From assembly GCA_964438995.1 (NCBI GenBank), contig CAYTMQ010000003.1, positions 249,600 to 313,599 on the forward strand: DNA of 64,000 nt. Reading direction: 5' to 3'. Within the stretch, counting starts at the first letter, position 1, and every line of letters starts with the position of its first letter. The notes under the pieces are model-generated. The model had not been told where the DNA came from. It was given only the letters and a program-made list of their open reading frames with translations, and ran no database searches. The position numbers and the translations under genes are program-made. Positions 7,970 to 62,495 of this stretch are shown piece by piece. The stretch is from an uncultured Chitinophaga sp. Lineage in GTDB: Bacteria > Bacteroidota > Bacteroidia > NS11-12g > UBA955.

Positions 7970-9223
7970 ATGCCTTATTTATTTACATCAGAGTCCGTAT
8001 CAGAAGGACATCCGGACAAAGTTGCTGACCAAATCAGTGACGCTTTGATAGATAATTTCTTAGCATTCGATCCACAAAGTAAAGTGGCTTGCGAAACTTT
8101 GGTAACCACAGGTCAGGTAGTATTAGCTGGTGAAGTAAAATCATCTGCATACCTTGATGTGCAAACCATTGCTAGAGATGTTATCAAAAAAATCGGTTAC
8201 ACAAAAAGCGAATACATGTTCGAAGCCAATTCTTGCGGTGTATTCTCTGCAATCCACGAACAAAGTTCTGATATCAACCAAGGTGTTGACAAGAAAAAGA
8301 AAGAAGAACAAGGTGCTGGTGACCAAGGCATGATGTTCGGTTATGCAACAATTGAAACTGAAAACTACATGCCACTAGCGCTTGATTTATCTCATAAAAT
8401 CTTAATCGAGCTTGCTGCTTTAAGAAGAGAAAACAAAGCCATCAAATACTTAAGACCAGATGCTAAAAGTCAGGTGACACTTGAGTACAATGATAAAAAT
8501 GAGCCAGTAAGAATTGATACCATTGTTGTATCAACACAGCACGACGACTTCGATTCAGAAGCTAAGATGTTGGCTAAAATCAAGAAAGACATCATCGACA
8601 TTTTGATTCCAAGAGTTAAAGCCAAATATCCTAAATACAAAAAATTATTCAACGATAAAATCACTTACCACATCAATCCAACTGGTAAATTCGTAATTGG
8701 TGGTCCACATGGTGATACTGGTTTAACAGGTAGAAAAATCATCGTAGATACTTACGGTGGTAAAGGTGCACATGGTGGTGGAGCTTTCAGTGGTAAAGAT
8801 CCAAGTAAAGTTGACAGAAGTGCCGCTTATGCAACCAGACACATTGCTAAAAACTTAGTAGCTGCTGGCTTATGTAAAGAAGCGCTAGTACAAGTATCGT
8901 ACGCTATTGGTGTTGCAAAACCTACCAGTATCAACGTTAACACATACGGTACTGCTAAAGTTAAAATGACAGATGGTGAAATCTCTAAAATAGTAGAGCA
9001 AATCTTCGATATGCGTCCTTACTTCATCGAACAAAGATTCAAATTGAGATCTCCTATCTATAGCGAAACCGCAGCATACGGTCACATGGGTAGAGAAAAC
9101 CAAGTAGTATCAAAAACTTTCACAACGCCAGATGGCAAGAAAAAAACCATGAAAGTTGAATTGTTTACCTGGGAAAAATTAGACTACGTTGAAAAAGTCA
9201 AAAAAGCATTCAAACTTAAATAA
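7970..9223 (+). CDS. metK: S-adenosylmethionine synthetase
   Basis: N-terminal [13 protein letters not shown] signature. Glycine-rich GGGAFSGKD loop. ~417 aa. Confidence 0.95.
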
Positions 9224-9226
9224 TAT

Positions 9227-9249
9227 AAGGGGCCTCGAGCCCCTTTTTT
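9227..9249 (+). terminator. Rho-independent terminator after metK
   Basis: aaggggcctcgagcccctttttt: GGGGC/GCCCC stem followed by a T-run. Confidence 0.7.
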
Positions 9250-9259
9250 AATATAGTAG

Positions 9260-10936
9260 ATGACCAATCAAAATGTCATAAATAAACTCACAACAACAAT
9301 AGGAACATGGCAACTGTTCTTGGTTTGTGCTTTATTTATTACAGGATTATGGCTGCCAAGAAACTGGGATTTTTATGGTAGTGGCGATTGGGATTTAACC
9401 TACACAACCTTTGAAGTAGCCAGAAAATCAATTGTCGAGTTCCATCAATGGCCTCACTACAATCCATTTTTAGCATTTGGAAGCGATTTAGACGCCAATC
9501 CTCAAGGCAACTGGATGAGTGTGTTTTTTATTCCTGTTCTTTTGTTTGGGAGCTTCTATGGCTACAAAATCTCCATACTTATGGCCATTTTAATTGGTCT
9601 ATTTGGCATGAAGAAATTGCTTATGTCTATAGGCAATGATGCTTTTCAATCTACCCAACTTTCTATCTTCTTTTGCACCGCATCTTTTTTCTCAAGCCAC
9701 ATTATAGATGCTGGTCATAGCAACTTTTTATACTTCTACTTCTTTCCATATCTCTTGTATTTTCTGAACAAATTCAGACTTCAACACAACAAGCACTTGC
9801 TGATTTGGCCACTCATCATTCTGTTTCAAATGTTGAGTGGAGGTGCACCATTTGTTTTTATTGTAGCTTGTGTAATGGTATTCGCTTGGCTAATTGGATT
9901 GTTGATACACAAACAAATTTCAATCAAAAACACTCTGCTAATTTTGAGTCCAATAGTTTTTGCGATTGGTTTGAGTTTATGGAAAATATTACCAGCCATA
10001 CAGTCGTGGAAGGAATTTCCAAGATTGGTAACAGATGATAGTCAAATCAATATTTTGGTATGGTTGCATGCATTAAATGACAGTAAAACAGATACAAGCA
10101 CACCACACGAATGGCATGAAATTACCATAGGAGTTGGACTAATTCTTCCAATTTTAATTTTAGCATACCGACAACACATAACACATTTTAAAACATGGTT
10201 CATTATAAGTTGTGTCATCATTTGGATGAGTTTAGGTAATCAACCTAATATCATTAATCCGTGGTACATCGTTCACCATTTCTTGCCCATTTTTGATGGT
10301 TTAAGAGCGCCGTTTAGATTTGGATTTATAACGTTGTTTATTGTGGTTCTTGGAAGTGGAATTATTCTTAAAAATTTAAATGATAACAAATTGGTTTTTT
10401 GGATTTTGATTGGTATTTCATTAAGTAATACTTTATCATTTAATAGCGTCTCTAGGAATATGGTATTTTCTAAAAGACTACATGATATACATTTAGAAAA
10501 CACTAAAGCGTTTGCGATTGTAAATAAAGGCATTCATTATCAAAACCATTATGAAAGTGTCAAGCACAATCAATTTCTAATTTCCGCTTATGAACCACAA
10601 CATATATCAGAGGTAAAAGACACATTAAGTGATTTTGTAAAAGGAGCAACGATGGTGAATTTTTCTCCAAACAAACTGACATTAAAAGCCAAGGATTCAA
10701 TGGTGACAGTTGCTCTGAGGTATTCCAAATATTGGACAATCAATGAAAATGCTTCTATTATCAATTCAAATGGGTTGATACATTTTAAATCAAAAGATGG
10801 AAAGGTTTACGAGTTGGAATATTCAAATCCGAATTTCGAAACTGGTCTAAAACTTTCTTTATTGGTACTGATTTTAAGTTTACTATTATTACTACCTATT
10901 AATAAGCTATTCCTTAAAAAGACTATTGCCCTATAG
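9260..10936 (+). CDS. Polytopic integral membrane protein of unknown function
   Basis: Many predicted TM helices and no recognisable catalytic motif. The true start may lie downstream of the annotated ATG. Confidence 0.5.
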   Translation: MTNQNVINKLTTTIGTWQLFLVCALFITGLWLPRNWDFYGSGDWDLTYTTFEVARKSIVEFHQWPHYNPFLAFGSDLDANPQGNWMSVFFIPVLLFGSFYGYKISILMAILIGLFGMKKLLMSIGNDAFQSTQLSIFFCTASFFSSHIIDAGHSNFLYFYFFPYLLYFLNKFRLQHNKHLLIWPLIILFQMLSGGAPFVFIVACVMVFAWLIGLLIHKQISIKNTLLILSPIVFAIGLSLWKILPAIQSWKEFPRLVTDDSQINILVWLHALNDSKTDTSTPHEWHEITIGVGLILPILILAYRQHITHFKTWFIISCVIIWMSLGNQPNIINPWYIVHHFLPIFDGLRAPFRFGFITLFIVVLGSGIILKNLNDNKLVFWILIGISLSNTLSFNSVSRNMVFSKRLHDIHLENTKAFAIVNKGIHYQNHYESVKHNQFLISAYEPQHISEVKDTLSDFVKGATMVNFSPNKLTLKAKDSMVTVALRYSKYWTINENASIINSNGLIHFKSKDGKVYELEYSNPNFETGLKLSLLVLILSLLLLLPINKLFLKKTIAL

Positions 10937-56651: not shown

Positions 56652-57077
56652 ATTTTAAATTATCACTGAGGCTATGATTAAATATTGGATGTTAAATTAT
56701 TTTGGAAATTAAAATAGGACATCTTTTTACTTAAATATATCAAAAGATAATAATCTAAGACTTTTTTAGTGACTGAAGTTGTGTGTACAAAGTTTAGCAT
56801 TTTTGTATTGTGTATTCAAGTGAAAGGTCATCGAATAGTCAACCTATTTTATCATGTTTCAAAACAAAATAACTTATTAATACTTGATTTACCAAATAAT
56901 TATCAAAACTACATTAACTATTTTAATTATTATACGCTGATTAACAGGCACATATAAATTTATTTTTACAGTTTTAGAAGTTGCTTTCTTCGATAATTCC
57001 TACTTTGATGACTTTAGTAGGACAGTCCGGCCTGAATGACACAGTCGGGCTAGGAACTAAGATTTAATTTATTTTTG

Positions 57078-57178
57078 TGGTCTCAGAAGGAATCGAACCT
57101 TCATTTAGCGTTTAGGAAACGCTCGTTCTATCCCCGCCCGACTGAACGTCGTTCGGGCAGGCATTGAACTACGAGACC
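57078..57178 (-). tRNA. tRNA-Arg(CCT) variant carrying a 29-nt hairpin insertion in the D-loop (101 nt; possibly a pseudogene)
   Basis: Manual fold: acceptor GGTCTCG/TGAGACC, D-stem GTTC/GAAC, anticodon stem AGCGT/ACGCT with loop TTCCTAA (anticodon CCT), T-arm GAAGG-TTCGATT-CCTTC. The D-loop AATG|GATA is interrupted by CCTGCCCGAACGACGTTCAGTCGGGCGGG. Confidence 0.6.
57133..57161 (-). repeat. 29-nt palindromic hairpin element (9-bp stem, 11-nt loop) inserted in the tRNA D-loop
   Basis: CCTGCCCGA-ACGACGTTCAG-TCGGGCGGG. A near-identical copy lies at 57537-57565 and a degenerate copy near 57030-57058. Confidence 0.6.
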
Positions 57179-57411
57179 ATTTTACTTTTTAAAAATCTTC
57201 TTCCTGCTGCAGTTTTAAAATATTTTTCTCTTTGTATGGCTTCTATTTCAGTTTCAAAAGTCTCAAAATATACTATCTCATATGGAATATAAGGCTTTAA
57301 AGATTTAGTTAAACCACTATTATATTGTCTTAATCTTACAGCCAAATCTTTACAATGACCCTTGTAGTAATAATCTCTTATTACACTTTTTAGCACATAA
57401 GCATAGAACAT
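57169..57411 (-). CDS. Small GIY-YIG nuclease family protein
   Basis: MFYAYVLKS...YYKGHCKDLAVRLRQYNSG...IVYFETFETEIEAIQREKYFK: canonical GIY...YIG, Arg and Glu positions of a minimal GIY-YIG domain (~80 aa). Lies between two tRNA-Arg copies on the same strand. Confidence 0.8.
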   Translation of the reverse strand: MFYAYVLKSVIRDYYYKGHCKDLAVRLRQYNSGLTKSLKPYIPYEIVYFETFETEIEAIQREKYFKTAAGRRFLKSKMVS

Positions 57412-57428
57412 AGTTTTAATTTTTTTTG

Positions 57429-57500
57429 TAGTCTCGGCGAGAATCGAACTCACATCAAATGTTTAGGAAACATCTATTCTATCCATTGAACTACGAGACC
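57429..57500 (-). tRNA. tRNA-Arg(CCT), canonical 72 nt
   Basis: Manual cloverleaf: GGTCTCG-TA-GTTC-AATGGATA-GAAT-A-GATGT-TTCCTAA-ACATT-TGAT-GTGAG-TTCGATT-CTCGC-CGAGACT-A. Anticodon CCT. CCA not encoded. Confidence 0.75.
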
Positions 57501-57520
57501 ATTTTGCAAATAGTTTTGGT

Positions 57521-57581
57521 AACATCTATTCTATCCCCGCCCGACTGAACATCGTTCGGGCTGGCATTGAACTACGAGACC
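57521..57581 (-). pseudogene. 5' fragment of tRNA-Arg(CCT) (acceptor to anticodon-stem 5' strand) carrying the same D-loop hairpin insertion, truncated
   Basis: GGTCTCGTAGTTCAATG-[CCAGCCCGAACGATGTTCAGTCGGGCGGG]-GATAGAATAGATGTT, then divergence. Lies 20 nt upstream (same strand) of the intact tRNA-Arg. Confidence 0.6.
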
Positions 57582-57664
57582 AATCAGGCTACAAAATTAA
57601 TGGTTTTTATACTTCTTCATCAATCAATTTTGTTGCATACCATTTTTTGCAATAAATTGCCCCA

Positions 57665-59176
57665 ATGTTTAGACAACTACTTCTAGCGTTTTCAGTATTC
57701 TTGTTTTGTAAATCCTCTTTTGCTCAAACAGGTATAATAACTTCTGCTGATAGCCTTATTTTTAAACAAGTCTTTGAACAATCGCTCACCAATGGCCATG
57801 CTTATGCCAGACTTGGAGAACTGTGTAAAAAAATTGGCGCTAGACTTAGTGGTAGTGATGCCGCTGAAAAAGGGGTTAACTGGGCTTATGATATGTTAAA
57901 ATCTTATGGATTTGACAAGGTGGATACGCAAGGTGTGATGGTGCCTCGCTGGGAACGAGGTAATATCGGGAATGTTCATTTCAACAGCCCATTGTTCATC
58001 AAACAATTCGGACAAGAAACAACCAAAAAAACACTTATAAAAAACATCCAAAAATCTGCCTATCCCAACTCACCTGCCCCTGAATTTGAGTGCGAGACAT
58101 TTTTGAATTCTTTAGTAAAAGCAACTAACAATATTAAAGTACCAGCCATTGCACTTGGTGGCTCTGTAGGTGGAAAAGCTAAAGCGGGTATTGTTTCAAT
58201 TACCACCAAAAATCAATTGGATAGTTTTGGTAAACTAGGTTTACTAAAAGGAAAAATAGTATTACTAAACCGCCCAATGAACGAATCATTAATAAACACC
58301 TTTCATGCTTACGGAGGTTGTGTGAATCAACGTGTTCAAGGTTCTAATTGGTGCTCACCATACGGTGCTTTAGCAGTGCTTGTAAGAAGTGTTTCCAATC
58401 GCTGTGATTTGCATCCACATACTGGCGTTACTGGATATGACAAAAACATCCAGCCTATTCCAATGATAGCAGTTGCGACAGCTGCAGCCGATGTGCTGCA
58501 TTACTTGAGTCTTAATGACCCTCAACTTACTGTTGATATTGAATTTAATTGCCAAATGCTACCTGATAGACAGAGTGCCAATGTAATGGCTCAGACCAAT
58601 GGTTCTAAATACCCAGAAAAAATCATCGTGTTTGGTGGTCATTTTGATAGTTGGGACCAAGGTGAAGGCGCACACGATGATGGTGCAGGCTGCATGCATG
58701 CCTTTGAAGCTTTGAGATTGTTAAAATCAATAGGCTATCAACCAAAACATACCTTGAGATGCATATTCTGGATCAATGAAGAAAATGGCGTTAGAGGGGG
58801 AAATGAGTATGCTAAAGTTGCTGCTGCTAAAAATGAAAACCATATTGTAGCGTTAGAAAGTGATAGAGGCGGATTCACTCCACGAGGCTTTGGAGTTGAT
58901 TCTGTCCTTCTTCAATTGATTCAAAAATATCAACCATTACTTGAAAAGTATGGAGTTGGAGAATTAGAACAAGGTGGAGGAGGTGTTGATATTGCTCCAT
59001 TGAAAAAACCATTTCCAAATGCACAATTTGTGGCTTTGCATCCGGATTCTCAAAGATACTTTGATGTCCACCATGCCGAAACAGACGTGTTCGAAAATGT
59101 CAATAAAAGAGAATTAGAATTGGGCGCAGCTGCTCTTGCTGTGATGATATACATCATCGACCAATCATTAGAATAA
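57665..59176 (+). CDS. M28-family zinc peptidase (aminopeptidase), secreted
   Basis: Signal peptide. GGHFDSWDQGEGAHDDGAGCMHAFEALRLL contains the M28 metal-binding His/Asp residues. 503 aa. Confidence 0.8.
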   Translation: MFRQLLLAFSVFLFCKSSFAQTGIITSADSLIFKQVFEQSLTNGHAYARLGELCKKIGARLSGSDAAEKGVNWAYDMLKSYGFDKVDTQGVMVPRWERGNIGNVHFNSPLFIKQFGQETTKKTLIKNIQKSAYPNSPAPEFECETFLNSLVKATNNIKVPAIALGGSVGGKAKAGIVSITTKNQLDSFGKLGLLKGKIVLLNRPMNESLINTFHAYGGCVNQRVQGSNWCSPYGALAVLVRSVSNRCDLHPHTGVTGYDKNIQPIPMIAVATAAADVLHYLSLNDPQLTVDIEFNCQMLPDRQSANVMAQTNGSKYPEKIIVFGGHFDSWDQGEGAHDDGAGCMHAFEALRLLKSIGYQPKHTLRCIFWINEENGVRGGNEYAKVAAAKNENHIVALESDRGGFTPRGFGVDSVLLQLIQKYQPLLEKYGVGELEQGGGGVDIAPLKKPFPNAQFVALHPDSQRYFDVHHAETDVFENVNKRELELGAAALAVMIYIIDQSLE

Positions 59177-61301: not shown

Positions 61302-61429
61302 TGAATACTATAAATTTGAGGGCAAAGATACAGTGTAGTAAAAAGGTTTAAATGATTTTTTAAATAATATTTAAGAATTTTTTGGTAAAAAAGAAAACAA
61401 AAATTACTTTTGCAGTCCTTTTCAAAGAT

Positions 61430-61500
61430 TGCCCGATCGTCTAATGGCAGGACTAGTGTTTTTGGTGCACTGTATGTTGGTTCGAATCCAGCTCGGGCAA
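61430..61500 (+). tRNA. tRNA-Gln(TTG)
   Basis: Manual cloverleaf: TGCCCGA-TC-GTCT-AATGGCA-GGAC-T-AGTGT-TTTTGGT-GCACT-GTAT-GTTGG-TTCGAAT-CCAGC-TCGGGCA-A. The U1:A72 pair is typical of bacterial tRNA-Gln. Anticodon TTG. Confidence 0.7.
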
Positions 61501-61529
61501 CTCTCTTAAAAGTTTTAAATCTCATCGCA

Positions 61530-62495
61530 GTGTCAATTCTTAACAAAGTAAAGATTTTCAGCGGCTCAGCCTCAAATTCTTTGGCGATGAAAATTGCCGA
61601 GTACTATGGTACCAGTTTAGGTGATATGACCTTAAGCAAGTTTAGCGATGGCGAAATGCAGCCAAGCTATAACGAATCTGTAAGAGGTTGTGATTTATTT
61701 CTGGTTCAATCTACTACCCCTCCAGGCGACAATTTATTAGAATTATTACTAATGATTGATGCTGCAAAAAGAGCTTCGGCTAACTCTATCACTGTAGTAA
61801 TTCCTTATTACGGTTATGCGAGACAAGACAGAAAAGACAAACCAAGGGTTTCTATAGGCAGTAAAATGATTGCTGATGTACTTAGTGCCGCAGGTGCTAA
61901 CAGAGTCATCACAATGGATTTACATGCTCCTCAAATCCAAGGATTCTTCAATATGCCAGTTGATCACTTAGATTCATCTGTAATTTTTATTCCTTACATC
62001 AAATCTCTGAATTTAGAGAAATTGGTGATTGCTGCTCCAGATGTGGGAGCAAGTAATAGAAATAGAGAATACGCGAAAGTTCTAGGTGTGCCAATGGTTA
62101 TTTGTGATAAAGAAAGACGTAAAGCCAACGAAATTGCAAGCATGACCATCATTGGTGATGTTACAGATGCAGATGTTGTATTGGTTGATGACCTTTGTGA
62201 TACTGCTGGCACACTTTCTAAAGCTGCAAAATTGATTAAAGACAATGGCGCTCGTTCAGTTAGAGCCGTTTGTACCCACCCAGTTTTAAGTGGCAAAGCA
62301 TACGAAAATATTGAAAATAGTGTTTTAGAAGAATTAATCGTTTGCGATACAATTCCAATGAAACATACTAGCCCTAAAATTAAAGTGCTTTCTGTAGCGC
62401 CTTTAATTAGCAAAGCAATTCGAAATATCCACGAACATGGATCTATAAGTTCCTTGTTCAAGCTTGATAATAGTTTCCAACCCAATTTAATTTAA
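61530..62495 (+). CDS. prs: Ribose-phosphate pyrophosphokinase
   Basis: VKIFSGSASNSLAMKIAEYYGTSLG...FSDGE and the PRPP-binding loop VLVDDLCDTAGT. Probable GTG start at 61530. The ORF-caller's ATG at 61410 reads through the tRNA-Gln gene. Confidence 0.85.
   Translation: MSILNKVKIFSGSASNSLAMKIAEYYGTSLGDMTLSKFSDGEMQPSYNESVRGCDLFLVQSTTPPGDNLLELLLMIDAAKRASANSITVVIPYYGYARQDRKDKPRVSIGSKMIADVLSAAGANRVITMDLHAPQIQGFFNMPVDHLDSSVIFIPYIKSLNLEKLVIAAPDVGASNRNREYAKVLGVPMVICDKERRKANEIASMTIIGDVTDADVVLVDDLCDTAGTLSKAAKLIKDNGARSVRAVCTHPVLSGKAYENIENSVLEELIVCDTIPMKHTSPKIKVLSVAPLISKAIRNIHEHGSISSLFKLDNSFQPNLI

Follow-up and report, generated by a model that had tools for sequence, protein, structure and literature searches.

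The tRNA-Arg locus described here lies on the minus strand of a 64-kb stretch of DNA from an uncultured Chitinophaga sp. (the window, meaning the whole stretch that was analyzed). It is somewhat probable that this locus belongs to a family of chromosomal cassettes in which a selfish Slx1/UPF0213-type GIY-YIG nuclease gene forms a unit with tRNA-Arg(CCU/CCG), homing and amplifying by break repair. The family is apparently large and undescribed and occurs in two bacterial phyla; no description of nuclease gene, hairpin and tRNA as a trio was found in the literature searched, which omits most subscription journals. The initial annotation of this DNA had spoken of a minimal tRNA-associated selfish module, which is a fair summary of what is a widespread family. 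The tRNA copies, hairpins and nuclease gene that it listed are all present on the minus strand, where it had placed them. Read 5’ to 3’ on that strand, the locus is made up of the following features.

57592..57627, minus strand: putative Bacteroidetes-type promoter, TTG followed after 21 nt by TAATTTTG, read from the sequence; it may serve the whole unit
57565..57581, minus strand: truncated upstream copy, tRNA-Arg nucleotides 1-17 (GGTCTCGTAGTTCAATG), by alignment
57536..57564, minus strand: hairpin copy 1 (CCAGCCCGAACGATGTTCAGTCGGGCGGG), in the D-loop between G18 and G19, by alignment
57513..57535, minus strand: remainder of the truncated copy, tRNA nucleotides 18 to about 40, with a resident-type body (GATGT anticodon stem), by alignment
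57501..57512, minus strand: 12-nt filler (TATTTGCAAAAT) between the fragment and the intact tRNA, with no counterpart in the empty site of a close relative (L211)
57429..57500, minus strand: intact tRNA-Arg(CCT) of resident type, presumably functional, by ARAGORN, Rfam and comparison with L211
57412..57428, minus strand: 17-nt A-rich spacer from the tRNA 3’ end to the ATG, from the sequence
57169..57411, minus strand: gene for an 80-aa GIY-YIG-only protein of the Slx1/UPF0213 clade, by Pfam, PDB profile matches and AlphaFold
57078..57178, minus strand: full-length tRNA-Arg(CCT) copy split by hairpin copy 2, by alignment, fold, Rfam, and ARAGORN after deletion
57133..57161, minus strand: hairpin copy 2 (CCTGCCCGAACGACGTTCAGTCGGGCGGG), at the same G18|G19 site, by alignment
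57055..57077, minus strand: second spacer (CAAAAATAAATTAAAT, homologous to 57428-57412), then CTTAGTT, a remnant of tRNA nucleotides 6-12; presumably the relic of a second unit that has lost its ORF
57027..57054, minus strand: degenerate third hairpin (CCTAGCCCGACTGTGTCATTCAGGCCGG), of a subfamily found in T loops elsewhere, from the sequence

The intact tRNA-Arg(CCT), 57500->57429, is called by ARAGORN and scores 63.2 bits against Rfam RF00005. The 101-nt copy (57178->57078), proposed earlier as a second full-length tRNA-Arg(CCT), is missed by ARAGORN as it stands and is called as such once the 29 nt are deleted in silico; RF00005 matches only its model positions 10-63, at 32.9 bits. All 21 stem pairs of this copy are intact. 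Against the resident tRNA it has 16 differences in 72 positions, five stem pairs among them being fully compensated. It is probably a foreign tRNA body that arrived with the cassette in this window. Insertion of the cassette into the D-loop of the resident tRNA was rejected, since the 101-nt body is not of the resident type and the intact copy shares 98.6% identity with the one tRNA at the empty L211 site. An Rfam search at E<=5 over 56700-57800 returned the two tRNA matches and noise, and nothing else.

The upstream fragment is part of a tRNA, as had been reported, but its end had been set at 57521, whereas the match continues to about nucleotide 40 (57513). It thus spans the anticodon loop, which is mutated to TACCAAA by two T->A changes, and is followed by the 12-nt filler. 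The first 17 nucleotides of the fragment are continuous with the native upstream flank, and the alignment with L211 ends exactly there. The hairpin, thought to be perfect, is imperfect: it has a 9-bp stem and an 11-nt loop, with one U.G pair in the 101-nt copy and an A.G mismatch in the upstream fragment, and 2 of the 29 positions distinguish the two copies. The third hairpin was likened to the CCTGCCCGACTG.GTCATTCAGGCGGG-type inserts of loci L027 and L081. Together with the homologous spacer it appears to be what is left of a second unit that collapsed; tblastn detected no remnant of a second ORF 3’ of the 101-nt copy.

The putative promoter lies upstream of the 5’ fragment and not immediately before the intact tRNA. 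A scan for sigma-70 promoters and intrinsic terminators gave nothing above chance; the models of that tool exclude Bacteroidetes promoters, for which the consensus is TAnnTTTG, and the box was therefore read by eye. The -7 box is also kept before the single tRNA of L211.

The assignment of the 80-aa ORF (57411->57169) to the GIY-YIG nucleases was borne out by Pfam (PF01541, E=1e-10, 42.2 bits against a cut-off of 22.6) and by profile searches of PDB sequences, which matched only 1ywl (9e-7) and 1zg2 (7e-5). The Pfam match spans residues 1-69 of 80; there is no second domain, and no appended DNA-binding module (NUMOD, HTH or zinc finger) was found in the protein. The AlphaFold model (pLDDT 87.8) has strands at residues 2-9, 15-20 and 44-52 and helices at 23-32, 55-65 and 68-78, a predicted arrangement that agrees with the beta-beta-alpha-alpha-beta-alpha core of the GIY-YIG fold. 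The best fold matches are 1zg2 and Slx1 (4xlg, 7cq2 and 6seh; TM 0.63-0.69), with I-TevI lower at 0.48. Residues Y5, Y16, R26 and E62 are invariant among 28 relatives. At position 30 the window protein has Tyr, as UvrC does at the equivalent position, whereas at least 90% of the relatives have His. The protein has no Asn after E62, and a C-terminal Asn typifies the UvrC/homing-endonuclease lineage and is lacking from the minimal Slx1-type core (PMC1564403). By sequence and modeled fold, the nuclease is a member of the Slx1/UPF0213 clade rather than of I-TevI/UvrC. Between the nuclease genes of relatives dN/dS is 0.09-0.24, which places the protein under purifying selection. No match came from NCBIfam, PADLOC or PHROGs, so the protein is neither a named equivalog, a known defence component nor a phage family.

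The ORF is interlocked with the tRNA copy that follows it. It ends with the codons ATG GTC TCG TAG, which double as the 5’ end of the 101-nt copy, so that the stop codon is U8-A9-G10 of the tRNA. The same arrangement recurs widely. The nuclease family comprises 1172 protein clusters, nearly all of 80 aa, and 535 loci with relatives of the nuclease were confirmed in representative genomes. Carriers in culture include Niastella yeongjuensis DSM 17621, Algoriphagus locisalis DSM 23445 and Segetibacter sp. 3557_3. Among 80 inspected loci, all but one labelled Bacteroidota, a same-strand tRNA-Arg(CCT/CCG) abuts the gene in 74 and an intact copy is retained. Where a tRNA lies just upstream of the ORF, it is mostly 9-19 nt away (commonest 12-13 nt). 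D-arm sequence follows the stop codon immediately in 51 of 86 ORFs, and in 41 of these 51 a hairpin comes next. Since the gene starts after one tRNA copy and ends inside the next, it is flanked by direct repeats of the host tRNA.

Amplification of the unit is visible at several loci. Tandem arrays of gene and broken tRNA occur at L005/L009, L004/L011, L013, L032 and L049; the repeat unit is 320-400 nt, and identical units occur. What is duplicated is either the 5’ part of a tRNA or a whole one, with end points that vary (nucleotides 17-64). An intact tRNA copy is nearly always kept; at L022 both tRNA copies carry a hairpin and none is intact. Elsewhere, the majority of the interrupted copies are truncated, bear more than one insert or have mismatches in the acceptor stem. 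Patescibacteria have a second mini-GIY-YIG family (44% identity), in which the trio recurs on other tRNAs, namely tRNA-Lys, Asn, Ile and Leu. The first subfamily counts more than 1,100 protein clusters and the second more than 3,100. In 22 of 69 cases the nearest neighbor of the protein was discordant with tRNA type, which suggests exchange between CCT and CCG loci as far as the low resolution of an 80-aa protein allows. Carriage by phages or plasmids was rejected, as tblastn against phage and plasmid records gave no match at 1e-8 and a viral contig collection yielded a single matching contig, evidently patescibacterial.

The contrast of occupied and empty tRNA-Arg sites, raised in the initial annotation, was found in three related lineages. 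L211 has a single clean tRNA-Arg(CCT) and no nuclease gene, beside an M28 peptidase that is 93% identical, and its upstream flank aligns up to tRNA nucleotide 17. L207 and L208-210 likewise have a single clean tRNA-Arg(CCT) without the gene, and all share the neighboring M28 peptidase, MetRS, tRNA-Gln and PRPP synthetase. This is the presence and absence at an otherwise conserved site that is expected of a SegB-like element. An independent assembly matches the window’s locus at 100% identity across the 4,000 nt that were compared, and two further assemblies have an identical protein in the same gene order. The module is also found at a syntenic locus across Cyclobacteriaceae, which would fit long vertical inheritance as well. 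Of the explanations offered initially, footprints of a tRNA-targeting element, with the GIY-YIG protein as its putative nuclease, are broadly supported by the trio in hundreds of genomes, the empty sites and the tandem arrays, but the footprints are not att sites of the integrase type.

The palindromes that interrupt the spare tRNA copies are GC-rich, 27-32 nt long and members of a single conserved family (CCCGCCCG...CGGGCGGG). Within the window, the 23-nt hairpin core occurs exactly twice in 64 kb, where shuffled sequences predict 0, and the 8-mer CCCGCCCG is absent from the rest. The 108 inserts counted in 61 loci lie mostly in or beside loops: the D-loop site, precisely at G18|G19, accounts for 63, the T loop for 20 and nucleotides 48-50 for 16. 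The G18|G19 phosphodiester is hit by different subtypes, in both orientations and by tandem multiples. Insertion into CAATG|GATAG adds exactly 27-29 nt without duplication.

The palindromes are not confined to tRNA genes. In an unbiased metagenome sample, 104 of 133 copies lay outside tRNA genes and the other 29 exactly at G18|G19 of tRNA-Arg genes. Dispersed copies sit at WG^GAT sites, in a REP-like manner, with tandem and inverted clusters; their oriented flank has G at -1 in 90% and GAT at +1 to +3. The T-loop site, read in the orientation of the element, is AATC^GAA and follows the same flank rule. Direct repeats of 7-8 nt flank only 6 of 93 non-tRNA copies and are attributable to tandem-repeat flanks. 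A MITE- or REP-like palindrome targeting this tRNA had been one of the initial suggestions. The conserved, dispersed family with 29 of 133 copies at G18|G19 upholds the REP-like part, but a classical MITE was rejected: the element has inverted-repeat termini without a target-site duplication.

Association of the palindrome with the nuclease gene is strong at the inspected loci, where 119 of 125 hairpins lie within 700 nt of the ORF. The 8-mer CCCGCC[CT]G has a density of 2.68/kb near the ORF versus 0.08/kb farther away, a 34-fold enrichment. Of the Bacteroidota loci, 73 of 76 have it no more than 250 nt from the ORF, as do 6 of 7 from Patescibacteria. Both phyla share the conserved hairpin termini, each beside its own GIY-YIG family. 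None of the 104 dispersed hairpins is within 2 kb of any GIY-YIG gene, and L120 and L139 have hairpin-bearing 5’ fragments beside tRNA-Arg with no GIY-YIG gene nearby; hairpins may therefore be mobilized by something else.

Among known systems, SegB of phages T4 and T6 also places a GIY-YIG nuclease gene among tRNA genes. SegB cleaves inside tRNA genes at the T-loop motif RAWTSGAAC and drives recombination-dependent amplification of segments holding tRNA and nuclease, with preferential inheritance of the region (PMC13096335; PMC2330249). The same motif fits GTTCGATTC in this locus, and by analogy the tandem arrays and variable-end repeats look like products of a SegB-like process. SegB, however, is a phage protein of the homing-endonuclease/UvrC lineage with a C-terminal region beyond its catalytic domain (truncated form: PMC13096335), whereas the nuclease described here has 80 aa, is a catalytic domain only, belongs to the Slx1/UPF0213 lineage and is chromosomal. 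The present module also differs in its single tRNA identity, in the stop codon that overlaps the tRNA and in the conserved palindrome family that accompanies it. The nearest sequence and fold matches are the Slx1/UPF0213 proteins (YhbQ and YazA; 1ywl and 1zg2). Slx1 works only with Slx4 and a RING domain, no function is known for bacterial UPF0213 proteins, and the literature searched held no link between UPF0213 and tRNA gene repeats or palindromes.

With REPs and REPtrons the module shares short (20-40 nt), imperfect, GC-rich palindromes that are dispersed, mostly intergenic, and found in tandem or inverted clusters, as well as an enzyme gene flanked by palindrome copies (PMC3733652). It differs in that the foot of the hairpin has no unpaired GTAG or CGTC tag (the criterion of PMC3733652), the neighboring enzyme is a GIY-YIG nuclease and not an HUH/Y1 transposase, the flanking hairpins lie in direct orientation inside tRNA repeats, and one tRNA D-loop site holds about one fifth of the sampled copies. 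The GC clusters of yeast mitochondria are likewise GC-rich palindromic mini-elements of an AT-rich genome that insert into genes and RNA genes (PMC4478555); they are organellar and of other sequence, and are not known to have an associated GIY-YIG-only gene or tRNA duplication. In disrupted tRNA genes, including archaeal multi-intron and split tRNAs and bacterial group I introns, inserts at non-canonical positions hide the genes from tRNA finders, as happens here (PMC3728597; PMC3978253; PMC13011429). Those introns are removed by a splicing endonuclease that acts at bulge-helix-bulge motifs or by a self-splicing ribozyme, and the gene is the only functional copy, in contrast to a 29-nt palindrome that has no such motif and adjoins an intact copy.

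The cassette reading can be put as a sequence of steps. Read-through from the tRNA promoter would transcribe the cassette, and the nuclease would break DNA in or beside tRNA-Arg, or at extruded palindromes. Homologous recombination between tRNA copies could then give segmental duplication, collapse, or copying of the cassette into naive tRNA-Arg genes, a SegB-like and homing-like spread by break repair. The palindromes would be cis-acting companions copied into the break sites. They might render surplus tRNA copies uncleavable, and might also cut the repeat homology into pieces of 16-22 nt, guarding the gene against deletion by repeat recombination; we infer both roles, as well as the target of the nuclease, from sequence patterns. 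The interrupted tRNAs would be pseudogenes rather than spliced precursors. Against the cassette reading, the intact tRNA beside the gene carries no protection. Slx1-type enzymes are structure-selective, and it is hard to see how an 80-aa domain that has no DNA-binding module would recognize a tRNA gene by its sequence.

The nuclease could alternatively be a domesticated, vertically inherited housekeeping factor of DNA repair or RNA metabolism, co-transcribed with tRNA-Arg by chance, and the hairpins an independent REP-like family, mobilized by another enzyme or by replication errors, that accumulates in dispensable tRNA duplicates because insertions there are neutral. The empty sites in three related lineages with otherwise conserved synteny make this unlikely, as do the 34-fold enrichment of the hairpin motif beside the gene, the tandem arrays of identical units, and the recurrence of the same hairpin termini with a 44%-identical family, on other tRNAs and in another phylum. 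Neutrality also leaves unexplained the repeated hits on G18|G19 by different subtypes, orientations and tandem multiples. Synteny across Cyclobacteriaceae genera and strong purifying selection on the protein would nevertheless be expected of such a factor, as would the lack of plasmid or phage copies; UPF0213/Slx1-type proteins are generally taken as cellular (PMC1564403), and the hairpins outside tRNA genes (104 of 133, none near the gene) and the L120 and L139 fragments agree with an independent family. A different division of roles, resembling a REPtron, would make the hairpin the primary mobile unit and the GIY-YIG protein its trans-acting nuclease, as RAYT is for REPs, with the D-loop AATG^GAT as the best target and the tRNA-Arg D-loop also the "home" of the enzyme gene. 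Hairpins do flank the gene here and at many loci, the dispersed copies have an oriented flank consensus that the T-loop AATC^GAA fits, the termini are conserved across phyla beside two GIY-YIG families, and Slx1-type enzymes, to whose Slx1-Slx4 structures the fold is matched, cut branched or hairpin DNA. This seems quite unlikely, however: strand transfer is not a known GIY-YIG reaction, this 64-kb window has no dispersed hairpin copy, and the duplicated tRNA segments run past the hairpins, which therefore do not mark the ends of the moved unit.

A processed or permuted tRNA had also been considered at the outset, and the related view is that the interrupted tRNAs function "in pieces" as a bacterial counterpart of multi-intron archaeal tRNAs, the hairpin being tolerated as an extended D-arm or excised, possibly by the GIY-YIG protein acting on RNA. 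In its favor are the position of inserts mostly in or next to loops, the 101-nt copy with its 21 of 21 stem pairs and five compensated differences, which is a standard tRNA minus 29 nt, the L022 locus without an intact copy, and the fusion of Slx1-like GIY-YIG domains to a TrmH-type tRNA G18 methyltransferase (PMC1564403). No permutation was seen, though, and the predicted fold of the insert is a plain stem-loop stacked on the D-stem, with no ribozyme core and no bulge-helix-bulge. The insert parts G18 from G19, which make the elbow contacts, and adjoins A20, an ArgRS identity element. Of 80 loci, 74 keep an intact copy, and interrupted copies are for the most part truncated, broken in the acceptor stem or disrupted by two to four inserts, some of them inside stems. 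The hairpin is found in either orientation and at about 100 places that are not tRNA genes; function in pieces is thus very improbable. Barely credible is an origin as att-site footprints of an integrase-mediated genomic island, although integration into tRNA genes is classical, relatives show little conservation in the flank downstream of the module, and in L208 the same tRNA has a large serine recombinase as its neighbor. The four ORFs adjoining the module, drawn from the listed ORFs of at least 60 aa, gave GIY-YIG, M28 peptidase, MBOAT and one without a match in Pfam, so no integrase or recombinase lies in or beside it in the window. The repeats are 5’ segments or whole tRNAs with variable ends and not a fixed 3’ core, and the repeat unit is only 320-400 nt. 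The integrase model was rejected for want of a recombinase and a fixed core.

Returning to the cassette reading, a broader version of it is possible but doubtful: mini Slx1-type GIY-YIG genes and CCCGCCCG...CGGGCGGG palindromes may together form an unrecognized class of mobile element, with an autonomous cassette and non-autonomous hairpins, that in two or more phyla homes to tRNA genes in their 5’ half, restores an intact tRNA through target duplication and seeds hairpins at WG^GAT. If so, bacterial UPF0213 proteins would gain a function, and a REP-like palindrome family that has no RAYT would gain a candidate enzyme partner for its mobilization. UPF0213/Slx1-like GIY-YIG proteins are common in bacteria, and the repeated genomic signature points to tRNA genes and a DNA hairpin as substrates, which is directly testable with an 80-residue protein and 30-nt oligonucleotides. 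The cassette reading would likewise extend the SegB principle of nuclease-driven tRNA-gene amplification from phages to bacterial chromosomes. As a natural rule of site-specific insertion, the exact G18|G19 site may be worth attention, together with the oriented preference for WG^GAT. For annotation, the module accounts for tRNA-Arg copies that tRNA finders miss or mis-call, and for the N-terminally extended "proteins" of ORF callers in Bacteroidota and Patescibacteria genomes, which are translated tRNA.

The tRNA fragment, intact tRNA, GIY-YIG ORF and 101-nt tRNA copy of the initial annotation were all found in place on the minus strand. Read 5' to 3', the array is composed as follows.

57599-57592, minus: Bacteroidetes-type -7 box TAATTTTG, upstream of the 5' fragment
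57581-57565, minus: tRNA-Arg nucleotides 1-17 (upstream fragment)
57564-57536, minus: GC-rich hairpin of 29 nt (copy in the upstream fragment)
57535-57513, minus: tRNA nucleotides 18 to ~40, anticodon loop mutated
Between upstream fragment and intact tRNA, minus: 12-nt filler
57500-57429, minus: intact tRNA-Arg(CCT), by ARAGORN and Rfam
Between intact tRNA and ORF, minus: A-rich spacer of 17 nt
57411-57169, minus: 80-codon GIY-YIG ORF
57178-57078, minus: full-length tRNA-Arg(CCT) with the same hairpin at the same place, overlapping the last 10 nt of the ORF
After the 101-nt copy, minus: spacer homologous to the first, then CTTAGTT (tRNA nucleotides 6-12)
57054-57027, minus: degenerate third hairpin

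The stop codon of the ORF is U8-A9-G10 of the downstream tRNA copy. The -7 box, identified by the Bacteroidetes consensus, precedes the 5' fragment rather than the intact tRNA, so the array is probably transcribed as one unit. The second spacer, CTTAGTT and the degenerate hairpin are read as what remains of a second unit that has lost its ORF. Neighboring genes encode an M28 peptidase, MetRS and an MBOAT protein, and the GC content of the window is ~35%. The hairpin does occupy the D-loop of two tRNA copies, but it is not perfect as had been claimed: a 9-bp stem encloses an 11-nt loop, and the two copies differ at two positions. Its core occurs twice in the 64 kb, where no occurrence is expected, and the 8-mer CCCGCCCG was not found in the rest of the window.

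At this locus ARAGORN called only the intact copy, which scored 63.2 bits with Rfam. The 101-nt copy scored 32.9 bits, with only model positions 10-63 aligned and part of the hairpin used as a false D-arm; when its 29 nt were removed in silico, ARAGORN called a normal tRNA-Arg(CCT). What the Rfam model takes as the D-stem is the 3' half of the hairpin, GTTCAGTCGG (57133-57147, minus), which resembles the 5' strand of the tRNA D-arm, GTTCAATGG, by coincidence or as a trace of the hairpin's origin. Between the intact and 101-nt copies, 16 of 72 positions differ. In the 101-nt copy each of the 21 stem pairs is still a standard pair, and in five of them both nucleotides differ from the intact copy: 28-42 and 29-41 (anticodon stem) and 49-63, 50-62 and 51-61 (T stem), numbered sequentially. 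L211, the closest relative found, has a single tRNA, to which the intact copy is 98.6% identical. Given these compensated stems and this match, the 101-nt copy seems to be a tRNA that was under selection elsewhere as it evolved and came in together with the cassette. The body of the upstream fragment is of the resident (intact-copy) type, so the hairpin also entered a resident-type copy.

Relatives of the locus were found through homologues of the neighboring M28 peptidase. For L211, whose peptidase is 93% identical, the alignment with the window covers the peptidase gene and the promoter and ends exactly at tRNA nucleotide 17. Beyond this point lies one uninterrupted tRNA-Arg(CCT), with neither hairpin nor fragment, nor the start of a GIY-YIG gene, in the 41 nt available past the tRNA. 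L207 (77%) and L208-L210 (71%) keep the synteny (MetRS, tRNA-Gln, PRPP synthetase) with a single clean tRNA and no GIY-YIG gene. The module is therefore an insertion polymorphism. It can also persist long, since Cyclobacteriaceae genera have it in common at a syntenic locus; its downstream flanks are rarely conserved. No plasmid or phage copy of the family was found in a viral contig collection or in phage and plasmid records, and the one viral-collection match, at 44% identity, pointed to the Patescibacteria family described below. In L208-L210 a large serine recombinase gene (1202-2527; Resolvase and Recombinase domains) lies ~270 nt beyond the empty-site tRNA-Arg(CCT), on its 3' side, so an unrelated integrative element may make use of this tRNA too.

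A protein search returned 1172 clusters, nearly all of 80 aa and ~70% identical, and a scan of one genome per species gave 535 confirmed loci, the best 80 of which were used for locus statistics. Seventy-nine of these 80 were labeled Bacteroidota or its lineages: Chitinophagaceae, Sphingobacteriales and Cytophagales (among them Algoriphagus, Cecembia and Chryseolinea). The exception, L048, labeled an alphaproteobacterial Bosea thiooxidans MAG, is probably a mis-binned contig. Within the same 80 loci, a same-strand tRNA-Arg (CCT or CCG) was present at 74, usually 12-13 nt from the ATG; D-arm sequence directly followed the stop codon in 51 of 86 ORFs, with a hairpin next in 41 of the 51; and window-like upstream 5' fragments with a D-loop hairpin were common. 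Tandem arrays of ORF plus broken tRNA exist (three identical units in L005/L009, for example), duplications in L043, L052 and L080 take in the tRNA promoter, and the order in L048, L068 and L076 is 5' fragment with hairpin, ORF, then intact tRNA overlapping the stop. In L022 (2320-2860) an insert splits the T loop of one tRNA-Arg(CCT) copy and the D loop of the other; apart from the inserts the two are identical and complete. No intact copy was found within 2.5 kb: either L022 can dispense with this isoacceptor or its genome encodes an intact copy at another place.

Inserts were mapped by searching each locus with its own tRNA, and the extra copies were split at fixed points. Among the best 80 loci, 61 held 108 inserts: 63 after tRNA nucleotide 17 (between G18 and G19), 20 in the T loop (between TTC and GATT), 16 at nucleotides 48-50, six at 39/40 and three at other sites. 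All belong to one family with the consensus CCCGCCCGGCTGA(A)CGCC(A/G)(T)TCGGACGGG, including 32-nt symmetric and longer variants, and are often tandem (56, 84 or 114 nt). Compared by eye, the window hairpin agrees at 25 of 29 positions with the consensus in reverse complement, the minority orientation at the G18-G19 site. In GIY-YIG loci, 119 of 125 hairpins lay within 700 nt of the ORF, and the 8-mer CCCGCC(C/T)G occurred in Bacteroidota at 2.68/kb within 250 nt of the ORF versus 0.08/kb further out.

Metagenome contigs were also scanned for the hairpin only, unbiased by the gene, which gave at least 120 stretches with at least 133 copies. Among the 133 copies listed, 29 were in a tRNA-Arg D-loop, 19 of them with a GIY-YIG gene within 800 nt; the other 104 were elsewhere, and none of these had a GIY-YIG gene within 2 kb. 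The dispersed copies lie in AT-rich, often repetitive intergenic DNA, some in tandem runs of six or inverted pairs. Contig L118 carries head-to-tail runs of two to six hairpins at four intergenic places in 10 kb (~8800-9750, plus 391 and 3320). In some genomes the palindrome has clearly multiplied in the manner of a REP/BIME cluster. General target duplication was not found at dispersed hairpins. Their flanks are oriented and non-random, with G at -1 (90%), T/A at -2 and G-A-T at +1 to +3. The D-loop site (AATG^GATA) conforms to this rule, as does the T-loop site (AATC^GAA) when read in element orientation, which explains the mostly opposite orientation of T-loop inserts. In L120 and L139, hairpin-bearing 5' fragments adjoin tRNA-Arg genes with no GIY-YIG gene nearby.

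A second family of GIY-YIG-only proteins (~78 aa, >3,100 clusters) belongs, where named, entirely to Patescibacteria lineages. At all seven independent loci (L206, L212, L213, L214/L219, L223, L224 and L225), a tRNA (Lys, Asn, Ile or Leu) follows within ~100 nt after the gene, and six of the seven have a hairpin with the same CCCGCC(C/T)G...CGGGCGGG termini. These adjoining hairpins are 40-48 nt long. In L212, L223 and L225 the hairpin lies within a truncated 5' tRNA copy that precedes the ORF, whereas in L206, L213, L214 and L224 it abuts the 5' end of the intact tRNA; L225 has another one a few nucleotides before its intact tRNA. The 8-mer density was 1.59/kb within 250 nt of the ORF versus 0 in 15 kb further out. 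Nothing argues more strongly for a functional link between gene and hairpin than this recurrence across phyla.

The window protein matched Pfam GIY-YIG (E=1e-10), and a profile of 28 relatives had no PDB match other than the UPF0213 structures 1ywl and 1zg2. The closest folds to its AlphaFold model (pLDDT 87.8) were 1zg2 and Slx1 (TM 0.63-0.69), ahead of I-TevI. Among relatives the catalytic residues (Tyr, Tyr, Arg, Glu) do not vary, and the window protein lacks the C-terminal Asn, an absence that marks the Slx1 lineage (PMC1564403). Together with dN/dS values of 0.09-0.24 between relatives, these features point to a minimal Slx1-type nuclease domain that is functional and lacks a DNA-binding module. 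TrmH-type methyltransferases modify tRNA G18, and COG4123 includes tRNA m6A37 enzymes. Bacterial Slx1-like GIY-YIG domains occur as fusions to TrmH-type methyltransferases and in operons with COG4123 methyltransferases (PMC1564403). This hints at a wider tie between the Slx1-like clade and tRNA, G18 adjoining the hairpin insertion site.

The findings fit a selfish cassette that draws on the tRNA promoter, is flanked by direct repeats of its host tRNA, can be gained or lost, multiplies in tandem and has a nuclease maintained by selection. The nearest documented mechanism is that of SegB, a GIY-YIG nuclease that cuts inside phage tRNA genes at a T-loop motif and, through homologous recombination, amplifies tRNA + segB segments and biases inheritance (PMC13096335, PMC2330249). 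On this likeness and the cassette's own features we propose that the nuclease would break tRNA-Arg DNA or the palindromes, and that repair of these breaks between tRNA copies would drive the cassette. The hairpins would accompany the cassette as cis-acting elements, copied in where WG^GAT-like sites are broken. They may make surplus tRNA copies uncleavable and, by splitting the 72-nt repeat into 16-22-nt pieces, reduce the repeat recombination that deletes the gene; pieces this short should suppress such recombination.

An unlinked housekeeping GIY-YIG gene beside an independent REP family, to be set against the recurrence in two phyla, is unlikely. It is distinctly unlikely that the hairpin is the primary mobile unit of a REPtron-like system, for all its REP-like spread. 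Functional, processed interrupted tRNAs are very improbable: these copies mostly have mismatched acceptor stems, truncations or several inserts and, as a class, appear to be pseudogenes, among which the window's 101-nt copy is unusually well preserved. Integrase footprints are scarcely credible. Returning to the selfish cassette, GIY-YIG nucleases near tRNA genes, REP-like palindromes and UPF0213 proteins are known kinds, and no description of the gene-hairpin-tRNA arrangement was found in full-text literature searches. The combination, its precision (stop codon inside the tRNA; insertion between G18 and G19) and its recurrence in two phyla appear new. That cassette and hairpins form a distinct class of mobile element is a tentative possibility.

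In N-terminally extended ORF calls of family members, the extension is the translated T-arm of a tRNA-Arg. In the window, the mechanically called PRPP synthetase ORF (61410-62495) starts at TTG and runs through tRNA-Gln(TTG) (61430-61501), so its true start must lie downstream of this tRNA. Such ORF-over-tRNA artefacts explain the N-extended GIY-YIG 'proteins' (MDSIRVSEAPDPGSIPGEAT...) in public databases.
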